Sequence record: NC_101838.1
Direction: 5' to 3' (one strand)
From: a phage
DNA length: 64,000 nucleotides
A program made the position numbers and the translations under genes. Positions 34,214 to 62,915 of this stretch are shown in pieces (the first letter of the stretch is position 1; each line of letters begins with the position of its first letter). The notes below the pieces were generated by a model that did not search any database, was not told where the DNA came from, and worked only from the letters and a program-made list of their open reading frames with translations.

Positions 34214-34687
34214 TTAGTCAACCTGAACCCAACCATCTGCTACCTTTTTAAACATTCTTTGGTTATCACTGCCTCTAAAGGGTTTTTTGGTGGGGTTATC
34301 TTTTTCGTACTTACCGTCCATAATGTAATCAACACTATCTTTAATGTAATCGGGGACTTCTTCAAACAAATACCCTGTGTACACCCAGATAGTTTTTGTG
34401 TTGCCGAAGTGTTCACGGATAGCGCGAATGATCGAGTACATACCATCAATATTGTAAGGCGCTAAAGGTTCGCCACCGCATAATGTAACGCCAGTAATGT
34501 GTTTCGGCTTTATAGAGTGAAGTATACTCTCAATAGTGTCATTTGTTAACGGTTCCCCTTTAGCTGGTGACCAAACACTTTTGTTTTGGCAACCGACGCA
34601 GTGATGTGGGCAACCAGAACAGAACACCGTTGTCCTAATGCCTGGGCCGTCAACCATGCTACACTCTATAATATTAACAACATTCAT
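34214..34687 (-). CDS. nrdG: anaerobic ribonucleotide reductase activating protein (radical SAM)
   Basis: Radical-SAM CxxxCxxC motif (CSGCPHHCVGC) plus a second Cys cluster; about 157 aa; located next to nrdD. Confidence 0.85.
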   Translation of the reverse strand: MNVVNIIECSMVDGPGIRTTVFCSGCPHHCVGCQNKSVWSPAKGEPLTNDTIESILHSIKPKHITGVTLCGGEPLAPYNIDGMYSIIRAIREHFGNTKTIWVYTGYLFEEVPDYIKDSVDYIMDGKYEKDNPTKKPFRGSDNQRMFKKVADGWVQVD

Positions 34688-35240: not shown

Positions 35241-36173
35241 TCATTTACCACAAATCTTCTTGTATACCTCTTCTACCGTGTCAAACACTTCAGGCCTGTA
35301 GTAGAAAAACTCAGTGCTACCGTCAAATTTTACAGGAAAGTTTATTTTATACTTGCTCAAGGCCTTATGCACAGATTTTTCTAAATCTACCATGTTTTGA
35401 GTTGATCCGCTCCATGTTTTTACTACGTGAAGAGTGTGGACACCTGCGCCAGATTTACGAGCACTGTTAAGCACCTCATTTTTCCTCCTGTGCATTTTAA
35501 CGCATACACCGATTTTCATAAGTGTTGGCACTTCTAAGTCATCAACCATAATGTAGAGTTTACCGTACTCATGAGATAAGAATCCATTTTGTGCGCATTT
35601 ACAGCAGCCACGACCACTTTTTAGGTTATTAGGTTTAGCAGACCACTTATACCCACAAATTTTGCACCTACATTGCACTTTTGTGTTATCATTGGCAATT
35701 TTCTCTAATATTTCTATGTCTGGGTTGGCTTTGTGGATAATTGCAGCGTGCTCCTTATGGGTTAACGCTTGACTTTGCCCACGTCTTAAGTCATAGCACT
35801 CTGGGCAGCCGTTTCTTTGGTATAAGTGGTTTTCAGGGTATTGTTCAAACACACCGTGTTCAGGGCAAACAATTTTTACAGGCGTTCTCATGTTCGCATA
35901 TTTGACTAATGAGTAATCGTACTTGTCCCCATGAACAGCCATAGCCTCTTTTATGAACTCTTCAGTGTTCTTTTTCGCTGACCCACCACACCTTGGACAA
36001 CCATGATTCTTGAAAGCATGTGCCACAGGGGTTTGCCAGAACTCACCGTGCTCAGGACAAATTATACACACAGGTGTCTTGTTGTTTTTATACTCCACTT
36101 TGAAGTAATCATATTTGTCACCATGTATAGTCTGAGCTTTTTCTATAAACTCTTCGGTTGTTAGTCTTCTCAT
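35241..36173 (-). CDS. T5orf172 (GIY-YIG-like) domain protein with three N-terminal zinc-ribbon repeats; homing-endonuclease-like
   Basis: Three repeats of FIEKA..IHGDKYDY..V.Y.N..TPV.I.CPEHG.F.Q.P..H...GCP.C; C-terminal KIGVCVKMHRRKNEV...DGSTEFF matches the T5orf172 domain pattern. Confidence 0.6.
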   Translation of the reverse strand: MRRLTTEEFIEKAQTIHGDKYDYFKVEYKNNKTPVCIICPEHGEFWQTPVAHAFKNHGCPRCGGSAKKNTEEFIKEAMAVHGDKYDYSLVKYANMRTPVKIVCPEHGVFEQYPENHLYQRNGCPECYDLRRGQSQALTHKEHAAIIHKANPDIEILEKIANDNTKVQCRCKICGYKWSAKPNNLKSGRGCCKCAQNGFLSHEYGKLYIMVDDLEVPTLMKIGVCVKMHRRKNEVLNSARKSGAGVHTLHVVKTWSGSTQNMVDLEKSVHKALSKYKINFPVKFDGSTEFFYYRPEVFDTVEEVYKKICGK

Positions 36174-36244
36174 TACCAGACCAGACCCTTCCGCTATTCA
36201 CTTTATATTGCATACTATAGAAAAGAGGAATAGAAGTCAATAAA

Positions 36245-36277
36245 AACAAAAAAAAAAATGAGAGCATCCTTGCTCTC
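36245..36277 (-). terminator. intrinsic terminator (minus strand)
   Basis: Hairpin gagagca-tcct-tgctctc next to an A-run of about 12 (T-run on minus) just downstream of the nrdD stop. Confidence 0.65.
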
Positions 36278-36288
36278 CACCTCTTTCC

Positions 36289-37512
36289 TTATTTACTCAA
36301 CGGACAACAGTCTACATTCCCAACATGTTTAACACGTTCGATAACCTCTGCTTGTTTACCTGTGTTATACGGCCTACTGTTCGGGCTGGAGAGATAGCCA
36401 GACACTCTTCGGATCACTGAGATATATTGTTCATCGTGGCATCCGCACGCAGGGCAGCAGAACCCTTTAGCTGTTGCACTGAACTCACCAGAGAAACCAC
36501 ACTTGAGACATTTATCCACAGGTTGGTTAATACCAAAATACATAATGTGTTTATACCCGAAGTCAACAAGAGCCTCTAAAGCATCAAGGTTGTTTTTCAG
36601 GTTAGGTGTCTCTACGTATCCGATGTTGCCACCGGAGGAGATCATAGCAAAACCTTCCTCATACTCCCACTTATCAAAAGGAGAGCTATTGATCCATACT
36701 GGCTGATGGAAACTGTTGGTGAGATATTCATGCTCGTGCTTTAACACTTCTGGATATTCACGATCCAGACAGGTTGCAGCTTTATAGCATAGACTCTCAG
36801 AAGGAGTGCCGTACAAGCTAAATGCTAGTCTACTTTCCTTCTTGTATCGCTCACAAGCATCTCTCATGTGCTGAAGGATTCCAAGAGCTAAAGCCTTGTC
36901 ACCTTCTCTGCCCAAAATCTGACAGGTTTCATACACACCAATGTACCCAATGCTGATGGAAGCGTACCCGTCATAGAAGAGTTTATCAATACTTTCTTCA
37001 GGATCCAGGCGAGCAAGAGCGCCTTCACACCACATGATGGGGTTCTGCCCTGCCTTTGTTCCTTTTAGACGGTTAACCCTTACAAGGTGAGCCTCGTATG
37101 CAAGATCCAAGTATTCGTCAAGAACTGCAAAGAAATCAACACCTTCCGTCTTAGCTTTTGCCGCAATCATTGGCAGGTTAAGGCTAACAACGCCTAAGTT
37201 AAATCTGCCAAGGTATTTCTCCTCGCCTGTTTCCAAGTCATTGTATTTGCTAAGAAAACTCCGGCAACCCATGCTCGTTACTTTGCCATCTGTCGAGCCT
37301 GTCACTTTTCTATTTAGTGGTACAGATACGAAGTCAGGATAGATACGTTCTGCACAGCATTCCAGAGCTAATCGTTTCAAATCATAGTTAGGATCTCCAG
37401 GGTTCATGTTGACACCCTCTTCTAGGAAGAACAGCACTTTAGGGAACACAGGTGTGATCCGTTCTTCACCAAGACCCATTTTGTGGACTTTCAAGTAATT
37501 TTTGGTAATCAT
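36289..37512 (-). CDS. nrdD: anaerobic ribonucleotide reductase NrdD, C-terminal part (candidate exon 2)
   Basis: Glycyl-radical motif RRVSGYLSS near the C-terminus; zinc ribbon CLKCGF...CCPACGC; GRFNLGVVSLNLPMIA resembles a conserved NrdD segment; no convincing SD before the first ATG. Confidence 0.8.
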   Translation of the reverse strand: MITKNYLKVHKMGLGEERITPVFPKVLFFLEEGVNMNPGDPNYDLKRLALECCAERIYPDFVSVPLNRKVTGSTDGKVTSMGCRSFLSKYNDLETGEEKYLGRFNLGVVSLNLPMIAAKAKTEGVDFFAVLDEYLDLAYEAHLVRVNRLKGTKAGQNPIMWCEGALARLDPEESIDKLFYDGYASISIGYIGVYETCQILGREGDKALALGILQHMRDACERYKKESRLAFSLYGTPSESLCYKAATCLDREYPEVLKHEHEYLTNSFHQPVWINSSPFDKWEYEEGFAMISSGGNIGYVETPNLKNNLDALEALVDFGYKHIMYFGINQPVDKCLKCGFSGEFSATAKGFCCPACGCHDEQYISVIRRVSGYLSSPNSRPYNTGKQAEVIERVKHVGNVDCCPLSK

Positions 37513-37605
37513 TCTACCAAAGACCGAGGTATCCAGTCCTAAACTTAATGTGATGAATGGAGTCTGCTGTCTCCTCCCTGTGTTTCCACAGGGCCAGACT
37601 ATCTC

Positions 37606-38139
37606 TTACTCTACTTCAATAAGATAATAACCCTTTATTGTGAGATGCTTACCTTCGGCATTTCCTTCGATAGCCCTATGAACGTTACCTACGTTCAAAT
37701 TTAAGGCTTTTGCACAGGCATAGAGTGAAGGATATTCACCCACCAAGGTTTTCCCTTTGTATGCCTGCACTTTCCTATAGCACTTACCTGGACAAAGTCC
37801 TGTTCGGAAAGCATGTCTCTTATTATCTTCCGGCAAAACCCACTCTAGGTTAGACGGATGATCATTCAATGTATTGCCATCTTTATGATTCACTTCCCAG
37901 TTTTCAGGGTCTTCTGGGACATCCGGCAAACAATACAAGGCAACAATCCTTGAGGTTTGGATTCGAATCTTTTTACCTTTGTGGTTGAAAGAGTACATAT
38001 AACGGCGTTTAACATGCTTGTTACCTTTTCCATAACCTCCCCACAATATTGGGTGTAGCATTCCACGTTTCCCGTATACGTTTCCAACCTCATCAATCAC
38101 ATAGTTTGATTCTTCACCATTAAGAATGATCTTTTTCAT
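37606..38139 (-). CDS. HNH homing endonuclease
   Basis: HNH motif EVNHKDGNTLNDHPSNLEWVLPEDNKRHA; own SD (ggagagg); sits between the two nrdD parts. Confidence 0.8.
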   Translation of the reverse strand: MKKIILNGEESNYVIDEVGNVYGKRGMLHPILWGGYGKGNKHVKRRYMYSFNHKGKKIRIQTSRIVALYCLPDVPEDPENWEVNHKDGNTLNDHPSNLEWVLPEDNKRHAFRTGLCPGKCYRKVQAYKGKTLVGEYPSLYACAKALNLNVGNVHRAIEGNAEGKHLTIKGYYLIEVE

Positions 38140-38360
38140 AGAGCCTCTCCATTTCGAAGTTAGTATTTCAACTAACCCCTACACTACTTGGTTCAGAAAT
38201 GTTTGTCAAGCATCTCTGCCTTTCGTTAGTCGTTACAACCGTTCCAACTCCTGTAAGAACTAGTCACGGGATTGGCATAGCTTTCGCCTTAGCGTTCCCC
38301 GTTAGCCGGATTTACCGACCCCTCTTATGAGGTTAGGAGAGTTTTACAACGGCCAGTTTG

Positions 38361-39224
38361 TTAACCGTTGACAGAAGTTAACGTATTGATTTGATAGAGC
38401 AAAGTCTGCATGCTGTCAAATACGTCTTTATCTGTCATTTGCATTGCAACAGTCTCAGCATCTGGCAACCAATGTTCCTGGCAAAATTTAAGGTTCTTCT
38501 CATAGGTCGCTTCAGCATACTGTGCCAGATAATGATCAATATGGCTCATAGTCTGACCCCCATATTGAGCACTAGCTACTGCACTAGAGATTTGGCTAAG
38601 GATTGTTGTTGCAACCCCTATTGACTTAGGCTTACTGACATGGGCGTTACCAATGTTGAATCCGTTTTCCAACATATCTGGATAATTTACCAAACAACAG
38701 TTTGTTAACGGACTGATCAAGTAGTCAAGATCATGCACATGGATGAAGCCTCTATTGTGCTCTTCTGAGACACGGTCTGGCAGGATCTGTGTTGATGCAA
38801 GGTGTTTGCTAAGAATGCCTGCAAGCAGGTCACGATGAGTGTGTACATGATTGGTAGGCTTATTTGCGTTTTCTTTTGTAAATTCATCACAAGTGCGATC
38901 CAAGAAGCCACTAATATCTGCAAGCAGTTTTCCACCTGCCTCTCTGTTATTATCTCTTGTCTGCCTATACTGGATGTATTCTCTGGCTGCACATTTTAAA
39001 CCCATATCCATAAGAGCGTCTTCAACAAGGATATGGATATTTTTTACAGAGATCGTGCACTGGTCGGTTGGTAGATTGTTAGCAACAACTTCATTAACCG
39101 CGCAGGCGATCCGGTAAGCTTCTTCTTCAGTATGTCCAGACTCAAGTAAGGCGGACTCTGCCGCCTTGATCACCTTAATTCCGTTATAGACCTCTTCTCT
39201 ACCGTCCCGTTTTACAACTTTCAC
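38361..39224 (-). CDS. nrdD: anaerobic ribonucleotide reductase NrdD, N-terminal part (candidate exon 1)
   Basis: ATP-cone-like N-terminus (MKVVKRDGREEVYNGIKV), GFIHVHDLDY motif typical of class III RNR; ORF stops after ...LTSVNG, 848 nt upstream of the C-terminal part. Confidence 0.8.
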   Translation of the reverse strand: MKVVKRDGREEVYNGIKVIKAAESALLESGHTEEEAYRIACAVNEVVANNLPTDQCTISVKNIHILVEDALMDMGLKCAAREYIQYRQTRDNNREAGGKLLADISGFLDRTCDEFTKENANKPTNHVHTHRDLLAGILSKHLASTQILPDRVSEEHNRGFIHVHDLDYLISPLTNCCLVNYPDMLENGFNIGNAHVSKPKSIGVATTILSQISSAVASAQYGGQTMSHIDHYLAQYAEATYEKNLKFCQEHWLPDAETVAMQMTDKDVFDSMQTLLYQINTLTSVNG

Positions 39225-62102: not shown

Positions 62103-62177
62103 GCCCTGTTAGCTTAGTGGATAAAGCAGCGGCCTTCTAAGCCGTTGACACTGGTTCGAGTCCAGTACGGGGTGCCA
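62103..62177 (+). tRNA. tRNA-Arg (anticodon UCU)
   Basis: Manual cloverleaf fold: 7-bp acceptor, D-arm agtggata, anticodon loop cuUCUaa, T-loop ttcgagt, encoded CCA. Confidence 0.85.
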
Positions 62178-62181
62178 AATT

Positions 62182-62268
62182 GGGGAGTTATCCCGTAGAG
62201 GTAGCGGTGTAGACTGTAAATCTATTGTCATTGCGACTCGGGTGGTTCGACTCCACCACTCCCCACCA
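62182..62268 (+). tRNA. tRNA-Tyr (anticodon GUA)
   Basis: Perfect 7-bp acceptor (ggggagt/actcccc), anticodon loop cuGUAaa, long variable arm, T-loop ttcgact, encoded CCA. Confidence 0.8.
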
Positions 62269-62382
62269 AATTTATATTTTTAGATGCATAAATAATACAG
62301 ATAATGGCATTGATATTTATCGTCGTTTATACTAGTCACTAACTGCTCGAAAATCAGTGTCATTATCAGTATTATTTATAAA

Positions 62383-62473
62383 GGAGGGTAGGGAGCAATG
62401 GTGCTCAAGCGGTCTTGAAAACCGTCCCGTTGAGGATGACTCGATGATGGTTCGATTCCATTACTCTCCGCCA
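62383..62473 (+). tRNA. tRNA-Ser (anticodon UGA)
   Basis: Acceptor ggagggt/actctcc, anticodon loop cuUGAaa, long variable arm, T-loop ttcgatt, encoded CCA. Confidence 0.8.
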
Positions 62474-62571
62474 CATTGTTGACCTTGTAATTAAGCGAAA
62501 GTCGGAAGCAGAACCGGATTATCAAATGTTACAGTCGTCATCGCCGACTAGCAACATGGTCAACATACTGA

Positions 62572-62670
62572 GCTAGGTAAGCCCTTTGGCAAGGGCGAGG
62601 ATTTTTAATCCTGAAAATAGACGAGGTAGTCGTTGAATACATAGGTGGTTCGATTCCATCACCTAGCACC
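62572..62670 (+). ncRNA. aberrant tRNA-like element (about 97 nt) lacking a canonical anticodon arm
   Basis: Good acceptor (gctaggt/acctagc), D-arm and T-arm (ggtgg-ttcgatt-ccatc), but the region between holds two 5-bp/5-nt-loop hairpins instead of a 7-nt anticodon loop. Confidence 0.35.
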
Positions 62671-62675
62671 TTTTT

Positions 62676-62751
62676 GCTGATGTAGCACAATCGGTAGTGC
62701 AATTGATTTGTAATCAATAGGTTGTAGGTTCAAGTCCTGCCATCAGCACCA
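62676..62751 (+). tRNA. tRNA-Thr (anticodon UGU)
   Basis: Acceptor gctgatg/catcagc, anticodon stem attga/tcaat with loop uuUGUaa, encoded CCA. Confidence 0.8.
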
Positions 62752-62752
62752 A

Positions 62753-62827
62753 GGCCCTGTAGCTGGAAGGTTCAAGCAAGCGACTCATAATCGCCAGACG
62801 GTGGTTCAATTCCACCCAGGGCCACCA
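62753..62827 (+). tRNA. tRNA with CAU anticodon (Met or lysidine-Ile)
   Basis: Acceptor ggccctg/cagggcc, anticodon loop cuCAUaa, T-loop ttcaatt, encoded CCA. Confidence 0.75.
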
Positions 62828-62838
62828 AATAGTAAATA

Positions 62839-62915
62839 CTCCGCGTAGCTCAGCTTGGTAGAGCGCCTGATTTGGGATCAGGAGGTCGAGTGTTCGAATC
62901 ACTCCGTGGAGACCA
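62839..62915 (+). tRNA. tRNA-Pro (anticodon UGG)
   Basis: Acceptor ctccgcg/cgtggag, canonical D-arm agctcagcttggtagagc, anticodon loop uuUGGga, T-loop ttcgaat, encoded CCA. Confidence 0.85.

Follow-up and report, generated by a model that had tools for sequence, protein, structure and literature searches.

A probable mobile IA2-type group I intron with an HNH endonuclease gene in nrdD of a Vequintavirus

Organization of the nrdD locus

The window analysed here is a stretch of 64,000 nt from sequence record NC_101838.1, belonging to a Vequintavirus (rV5-like) coliphage; all coordinates are window positions. Its nrdD locus is on the minus strand, at 36289-39224, and about 120 Vequintavirus records match this region at 93-98% identity. 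Three open reading frames (ORFs) are present (Table 1): an N-terminal and a C-terminal part of nrdD and, between them, a gene for an HNH protein, as described in a first-pass annotation made from the sequence alone. The segment from 38363 to 37567 within nrdD is very probably a mobile IA2-type group I intron. Group I introns with homing endonuclease genes are well-known selfish elements in phage nucleotide-metabolism genes.

When the two nrdD ORFs are taken separately, positions 155-179 of the Pfam NRDD profile are covered by neither. The distance from the stop codon of the N-terminal ORF to the ATG of the C-terminal ORF is 848 nt. There is a good Shine-Dalgarno sequence for the HNH ORF, GGAGAG, 5 nt 5′ of its AUG, and there is none at the ATG at 37512 that opens the C-terminal ORF; on both points the first-pass annotation was right. 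In addition, no in-frame ATG, GTG or TTG is found between the intron and the Met at 37512.

Upstream, nrdD starts with a GTG at 39224 that overlaps the stop codon of a glutaredoxin gene. Residues 1-91 of NrdD are the ATP-cone domain, and the alignment with PDB 9d3x begins at residue 1. The coding sequence (CDS) in the GenBank records of the BASEL collection begins at Met72 (window 39011), therefore the ATP-cone domain is lost from the annotated CDS. Nineteen records labelled 'Campylobacter phage' (MG0656xx, host label Campylobacter jejuni) are 96-97% identical to the nrdD region; this host label looks doubtful.

Table 1. Reading frames, exons and predicted intron elements of the nrdD locus
Feature	Position	Strand	Description
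nrdD N-terminal ORF	38361..39224	-	287 aa; Pfam ATP-cone and NRDD profile positions 1-154
HNH ORF	37606..38139	-	177 aa; Pfam HNH_3, 29.3 bits (cut-off 24.8)
nrdD C-terminal ORF	36289..37512	-	407 aa; Pfam NRDD profile positions 180-562 and glycine-radical domain
nrdD exon 1	38364..39224	-	GTG start; ATP-cone and N-terminal reductase part; 3′ end ...GUC AAC GGU
Predicted group I (IA2-type) intron	37567..38363	-	797 nt; 5′ end UAACAAACUGG, 3′ end ...GGAGACAG, omega-G at 37567; presence/absence polymorphism, sub-threshold RF00028 match, covariation
nrdD exon 2	36289..37566	-	Begins CAG ACU CCA UUC (Q-T-P-F); glycine-radical domain
P1	38347..38370	-	Exon CAACGGU (38364-38370) with internal guide GCCGUUG (38347-38353); 7 bp, U·G at 5′ splice site
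P10 (weak)	38354-38356	-	CUG, able to pair with exon 2 CAG
P3, 5′ strand	38336..38341	-	CUCUCC; 6/6 pairing with GGAGAG at 38145-38150
Two adjacent hairpins between P3 and J3/4-P4	38305..38332	-	CCUCAUAAGAGG and GUCGGUAAAUCCGGC
P4-P5-P6 domain	38237..38302	-	P4 ACGGGG/UCCCGU; P6 GAC/GUU, then P6a; core pattern common to at least 120 viral contigs
P7, 5′ strand	38227..38231	-	GACUA; pairs with UAGUC at 37597-37601, giving a pseudoknot with P3
P7.1	38190-38220	-	IA2 signature helix
GUA and P7.2	38156-38182	-	IA2 signature helix; followed by GAAAU and the P3 3′ strand
P3, 3′ strand	38145..38150	-	GGAGAG; doubles as Shine-Dalgarno sequence of the HNH gene
P8	38138-38143 / 37609-37614	-	CUCUAU / GUAGAG; HNH ORF (37606..38139) in its loop
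P7 3′ strand, P9 and 3′ tail	37567..37601	-	P7′ 37597-37601; P9 CCCUGUG-GAAA-CACAGGG 37576-37593; omega-G 37567

Intron boundaries and the spliced product

The UAA stop codon of the N-terminal ORF is made up of the first three bases of the intron. At the other end, the last 54 nt of the 848 nt gap (37566..37513) are part of exon 2, in which they encode QTPFITLSLGLDTSVFGR, and the ATG at 37512 is therefore an internal Met codon of nrdD. The separation of 848 nt reported in the first-pass annotation is thus correct as the distance from stop codon to ATG, but not as the size of the inserted element, which is 797 nt. In-silico removal of 38363..37567 joins GGU^CAG (^ marks the junction) and gives a continuous ORF of 712 aa in which the NGQTPF motif is restored. 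The spliced product aligns without a gap at the junction to T4 NrdD (1h78, E 2e-167) and to 9d3x (E 7e-162), the sequence across the junction being ...NTLTSVNG^QTPFITLSLG... against ...NTLFSSNGQTPFVTITFG....

Comparison with phages that have no insert, a check proposed in the first-pass annotation, gives precise, in-frame boundaries that match the sister-phage alleles. Exon 1 is matched by identical or near-identical, uninterrupted sequence in the intron-less phages naam and rV5, and a query of the predicted spliced junction (200 nt from each exon) is found there with all 400 nt in one piece, at 99.5% identity in naam and 98.8% in rV5. In a multiple alignment, the three intron-less alleles (naam, rV5, and NHEP1) read GTC AAC GGG CAA ACT across the site and the five interrupted alleles read GGT^insert...G^CA(A/G). 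The last base of exon 1 is U solely in the interrupted alleles, where intron-less alleles have G, and the insert ends in G (...GACAG^CAG), as expected of the omega-G of a group I intron. Readings as an intein, as a group II intron or as a translational bypass were dismissed in view of the in-frame stop codon at the start of the insert, the group I core, and the clean DNA-level indel in the sister phages.

These boundaries bear on whether nrdD could instead be a gene in pieces, in which a free-standing HNH gene separates two halves that are translated separately and assemble without RNA splicing. An HNH gene flanked by two long ORFs would be found in such a case, a split of this kind is known for a phage reductase gene (Aeh1 nrdA/mobE, cited in PMC7344957), and the Rfam gathering score is not reached by the insert. 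However, the second half has no start codon 5′ of Met 37512, which is itself without a Shine-Dalgarno sequence, and a separate C-terminal polypeptide would lose the 18 conserved residues of QTPFITLSLGLDTSVFGR, including QTPF. Further, the insert carries a conserved, covarying ribozyme core, and in 14 phages the same site is interrupted by 257 nt without any ORF. The mobE-like split gene that the first-pass annotation had allowed for fails on the 18 conserved codons lying 5′ of the only available start of the second half, and separate translation of the halves is extremely unlikely. The preference of that annotation for RNA splicing over two polypeptides is supported in silico by the boundaries, the covarying core, the ORF-less form, and purifying selection.

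Structure of the ribozyme core

The structure of the intron (Table 1) was derived by analogy with the T4 nrdD intron and by comparison of relatives. Compensatory changes between the two types of intron found in Vequintaviruses, one with and one without an ORF, are present in P1, P3, the second hairpin, P6a, and P9. For example, P1 is AAACGGU/GCCGUUU in the ORF-less type, and P3 in relatives is CUCUGC paired with GCAGGG or GCAGAG. The sequences of the two hairpins between P3 and P4 vary between intron variants. P5 contains a GCUAAG...CUAUGC motif like the 11-nt tetraloop receptor, together with a GAAA loop.

Introns of subgroup IA2 have the extra helices P7.1 and P7.2, linked by G-U-A, between P7 and the 3′ strand of P3 (PMC3428280). 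Since P7.1 and P7.2 are here joined by GUA, the intron is of the IA2 type. A second candidate for the P3 strand, GCAGAG inside P7.1, is a decoy that pairs at five of six positions; the GGAGAG that follows GAAAU was preferred, as it pairs at all six and its position is the same as in all relatives.

In a MAFFT alignment of 15 sequences, 97.3% of cells in the core helices P3-P7 are paired, compared with 33-43% when the partners are slid by 1-3 columns. Changes on both sides are seen in nine of the 22 core pairs, including five of the six in P3. The covariation score, calculated on P3, P4, P5, P6, and P7 only because the variable hairpins could not be aligned by MAFFT, is 0.428 against no more than 0.10 in controls and was reached in none of 500 shuffles; P4 and P7 are partly fixed in this set by the search pattern, and the 5′ strands of P3 were first located by complementarity.

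A 4 bp helix is also present across the 3′ splice site (37559..37574, minus strand), between GGAG of the intron tail and CUCC of exon 2. It covaries with synonymous exon 2 changes in the ORF-less type, in which it is GGGG/CCCC, and its role might be to position the 3′ splice site or to mask it.

Distribution and selection

An insert is present at this site of nrdD in 42 of about 120 Vequintavirus records, the 797 nt form in 28 and the ORF-less form of 257 nt in 14. The 257 nt form begins with an in-frame stop codon, therefore nrdD in those 14 phages could work only if the insert is removed from the RNA. Phage rV5 itself is without the nrdD intron, and in the rV5 genome paper introns are mentioned only in terminase.

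Codon differences from EI-SP-GF, which also carries the 797 nt form, are mostly synonymous in both exons: 43 synonymous and 2 nonsynonymous in exon 1, and 95 synonymous and 20 nonsynonymous in exon 2. Based on this synonymous excess, the interrupted nrdD is under purifying selection in both exons.

A second, conventional group I intron is present in exon 2 of nrdD in some relatives (navn, JEP1, A147, and UViG L055), at the KVTSMG^C codons. It is located at ~3066-3817 in L009 (navn), where it has a 170-aa ORF, and at 2246-2485 in L055, and scores 70.5 bits against RF00028. The nrdD of the window is without this second intron.

Rfam scores and the two-hairpin subclass

At Rfam gathering thresholds, a search of the whole window returned tRNAs only and no group I match; six tRNA genes are clustered at 62103..62912 on the plus strand. 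The gathering score of RF00028 is 50 bits. The ORF-less relative aligns to this model over its full length, from the predicted 5′ splice site, with 29.8 bits (E 1.3e-4), and the T4 nrdD intron, as positive control, scores 105 bits.

The low scores are shared with other introns of the same architecture. The core pattern CGGGGAA..CAATCCCG..AACGACTA matches at least 120 viral contigs, and about 25 distinct sequences among these share the order P3 5′ strand, [G/U]AA, two hairpins, and UAA-P4. Loci with this architecture include L014, L022, L052, L054, L056, L065, L071, L074, L078, L080, L082, L088, L089, L093, L096, and L122. The long-range P3 is paired at six of six positions in 21 of 23 distinct subclass sequences, by at least 12 different sequence pairs; about five of the sequences (FV3, L065, L071, and the two copies from L093) were checked by eye, since automatic detection of P3 had settled on an incorrect GAARY there. 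The insert folds into exactly two hairpins in all 19 of 19 subclass sequences, with a mean z of about -3.1. No name or description of this P3-P4 feature was found in the searchable literature.

Subclass members with the two hairpins score 27-53 bits against RF00028, compared with 70.5 bits for the second nrdD intron, of conventional type, that a Vequintavirus contig carries in addition to its subclass intron. The low score therefore looks like a limitation of the model caused by the architecture rather than decay. Most members are below the gathering score and would consequently be missed by standard annotation. For this one subclass of phage introns, the Rfam group I model has a definite blind spot. 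The first-pass annotation had proposed a search with group I covariance models, with absence of a group I core counting as refutation; the Rfam score of the window intron did come out below the gathering score (27.7 against 50 bits), and that condition, taken literally, is misleading here.

A related question is whether this could be a decayed group I intron that no longer splices, in which case nrdD would be a pseudogene, tolerable since the phage also has aerobic NrdAB. Decay might account for the low Rfam score and for the unusual insert that separates P3 from P4, and also for the overlap of core helices with the translation signals (ribosome-binding site and start codon) of the endonuclease. 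However, the low score is common to the whole subclass, whose two-hairpin insert keeps its structure in 19 of 19 sequences, all of the core helices are intact with compensatory changes, and purifying selection is strong on both exons in intron-bearing lineages (43:2 and 95:20). Decay is therefore very unlikely.

Some observations do weigh against the assignment of 38363..37567 as a group I intron. A shift of both splice sites by one base also yields GGG CAG, so that comparison alone leaves the boundary ambiguous by 1 nt; 38363..37567 was chosen because the group I rules, a U·G closing P1 and a terminal G, settle this ambiguity. P10 is just 3 bp, and P6a has one U·U mismatch. The covariation statistics are somewhat favoured by the fixing of P4 and P7 in the search pattern and by the locating of P3 through complementarity. 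In a permissive RF00028 search, the window intron obtained 27.7 bits (E 9.5e-5) with an alignment misplaced through the ORF, and neither intron form reaches the gathering score (27.7 and 29.8 against 50 bits). Finally, no paper describing a Vequintavirus nrdD intron was found in the searchable literature. In favour of the intron, independent annotators have already joined the two nrdD parts: the GenBank records of the BASEL collection give nrdD as a two-piece joined CDS in both the 797 nt and the 257 nt forms, and the BASEL paper states that intron boundaries were set by comparative genomics (PMC8594841). With these points included, a mobile IA2-type group I intron is still considered very probable.

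The HNH endonuclease and mobility of the intron

An alignment of the HNH protein with I-HmuI (PDB 1u3e; E 2.7e-4) covers residues 8-160 and shows a conserved NHKDGN...N motif; the protein also matches phrog_59 (E 1.5e-26). Among Bastillevirinae, phrog_59 is the principal group of HNH nucleases encoded by introns (PMC11878797). In the C-terminal part, the Pfam I-HmuI_NUMOD-like match is below its cut-off (18.4 against 27 bits), while the 1u3e alignment reaches residue 160. Homologues of more than 95% identity are confined to Vequintaviruses that carry the intron; beyond these, the best match drops to about 32%. Compared with FV3, the HNH ORF of the window has 16 synonymous codon differences and 2 nonsynonymous ones.

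The intron is 99.5% identical to that of EI-SP-GF (4 differences in 797 nt), compared with 94.7% for exon 1 and 89.4% for exon 2. Beyond the intron, the stretch free of mismatches continues for about 30 nt in exon 1 and 41 nt in exon 2. Because the intron is more alike than the exons, the identical flanks are short, and the distribution is patchy, this pattern points to recent homing with short co-conversion tracts.

Alternatively, the intron could be competent for splicing and homing could have ceased, with an endonuclease that is inactive or repurposed, as a maturase or for interference with competing phages. HNH proteins are functionally diverse, the NUMOD-like match is sub-threshold, and the ORF-less form persists in 14 phages. 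On the other side, the catalytic motif is intact, the alignment with I-HmuI is nearly full-length, and the HNH ORF is under purifying selection. The intron is also far more alike than the exons between phages and has short identical flanks, which would be the trace of a recent endonuclease-driven transfer. A cessation of homing is therefore unlikely, and an intron that is still mobile remains the preferred interpretation.

The Shine-Dalgarno sequence of the HNH gene (GGAGAG, 38145..38150) is at the same time the 3′ strand of P3, and its AUG is within the 5′ strand of P8 (38138..38143). Because of this overlap, the folded ribozyme would block HNH translation and ribosomes would block folding, so that the two should be mutually exclusive on one RNA molecule. 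If true, the P3/P8 overlap would act as an internal switch that sets splicing against mobility. An architectural subclass of phage IA2-type introns, mostly sub-threshold in Rfam, that is combined in the window version with such a switch between splicing and endonuclease expression is put forward here as a tentative proposal. An internal promoter for the HNH gene was considered and rejected: there is no sigma-70 promoter inside the intron, and a TTGACA in the P7.1 loop (38204-38209) is accompanied by a match of only 3/6 at -10.

Proposed mechanism

Under the proposed mechanism, which is drawn by analogy from characterised phage group I introns, nrdD would be transcribed as a single pre-mRNA, in which the intron RNA would fold into P1 (CAACGGU/GCCGUUG), a P3-P9 core with the P3/P7 pseudoknot, P7.1/P7.2, and the two-hairpin insert. 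Free guanosine would attack after the exon-terminal U (38364), and the freed exon end would then attack after the terminal G (37567). Ligation of the exons (GGU-CAG) would give an mRNA for a continuous 712-aa NrdD with NGQTPF intact. Such splicing would be catalysed by the intron RNA. In co-infections, the HNH endonuclease may nick or cut the intron-less nrdD of other Vequintaviruses near GGG^CAA, and repair from the intron-bearing copy would transfer the intron together with about 30-40 nt of sequence on either side (homing).

Neighbouring genes and implications for annotation

Between nrdD and nrdG (34214..34687) there is a gene for a 310-aa protein at 35241..36173 on the minus strand. The protein has a T5orf172 domain and DUF723/CapR zinc-ribbon repeats, and matches phrog_681 ('endonuclease'). 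It is absent at this place in AlexBoehm and is annotated as a 'putative homing endonuclease' in WalterGehring. On the 5′ side of the gene are a terminator-like hairpin (36260-36277) and a promoter-like site (36212-36240). This protein is probably a second, free-standing homing endonuclease at the nrdD locus.

In about 40 public Vequintavirus genomes, nrdD is broken up into two or three separate genes and a 'hypothetical protein', where a joined CDS with an intron and an endonuclease gene should be annotated. Correct gene models are relevant since Vequintaviruses are candidates for therapy and biocontrol. As interpreted here, the element is a mobile group I intron of a familiar, ordinary kind that some GenBank annotations already imply, and current understanding of group I introns is unchanged by it. 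Only the two-hairpin subclass that is under-detected by Rfam and the overlap of the endonuclease translation signals with P3 and P8 are mildly novel.

Comparison with known systems

Within the genus, the closest comparison is with the ORF-less intron of AlexBoehm, navn, CM1, and others, which has the same site, the same architecture, and the same P7′ and P9 as the window intron. The two are 86% identical over the first ~140 nt (P1-P7), whereas the segment with P7.1, P7.2, P3′, and P8 cannot be aligned and the ORF-less intron, at 257 nt, has no endonuclease gene. The exon 2 flank is CAA ACC CCU UUU in the ORF-less type and CAG ACU CCA UUC in the window.

In the Aeromonas phage Aeh1, a reductase gene (nrdA) is likewise split into two ORFs by an HNH gene (mobE). 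There is no ribozyme in that case and the halves are separately translated; here there is a conserved group I core, and the second half is without its own start for 18 conserved codons.

With regard to the endonuclease, the introns that interrupt the genes for DNA polymerase in the Bacillus phages SPO1 and SP82 (I-HmuI and I-HmuII), and related Bastillevirinae introns, are of IA type and, as here, encode a small HNH protein of ~175 aa. Proteins of the I-HmuI group combine an HNH motif at the N-terminus with a C-terminal part that is NUMOD-like, and the protein in the window is likened to these through the alignment of residues 8-160 and through phrog_59. The host gene (DNA polymerase) and the host phylum are different, however, and the protein similarity is distant (E 2.7e-4). 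Cleavage by I-HmuI is a nick in the template strand, 3 nt downstream of the site of insertion (PMC3428280). The endonuclease in the window is closest in kind to I-HmuI of SPO1.

The first-pass annotation had likened the insert to the T4 nrdD intron. This likeness extends to the kind of intron, but not to the insertion site, the endonuclease family, or the position of the ORF in the intron. The T4 nrdD (sunY) intron with I-TevII interrupts the same gene and the same protein block, has an IA2-type core with P7.1 and P7.2, and is mobile with a homing endonuclease gene. Its P4, P7, and J8/7 sequences are very similar to those of the window intron, with an identical 5′ strand of P7 (GACUA), and neither intron has a P2. 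The ribosome-binding sites of T4 intron endonucleases are sequestered (PMC2988022), which resembles the overlap of the HNH translation signals with P3 and P8. The gene for T4 mobC is in the same nrdD-nrdG intergenic position as that for the 310-aa protein. On the other hand, the T4 intron is without the two-hairpin insert between P3 and P4, and scores 105 bits against RF00028 compared with about 28-30 bits for the Vequintavirus introns. The endonuclease I-TevII is of the GIY-YIG family, with its ORF downstream of the aligned core, and that of the window is an HNH protein with its ORF in P8. The T4 insertion site (GAGU^AUGAAG) is inside the Tyr180 codon, 31 nt upstream of the site used here (Gly190^Gln191, T4 numbering). 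The T4 and Vequintavirus nrdD introns are related IA2 ribozymes that were inserted independently into one conserved block. A second, independent homing site 31 nt from that of T4 is in line with the idea that invariant codons of critical function are the targets of mobile introns.

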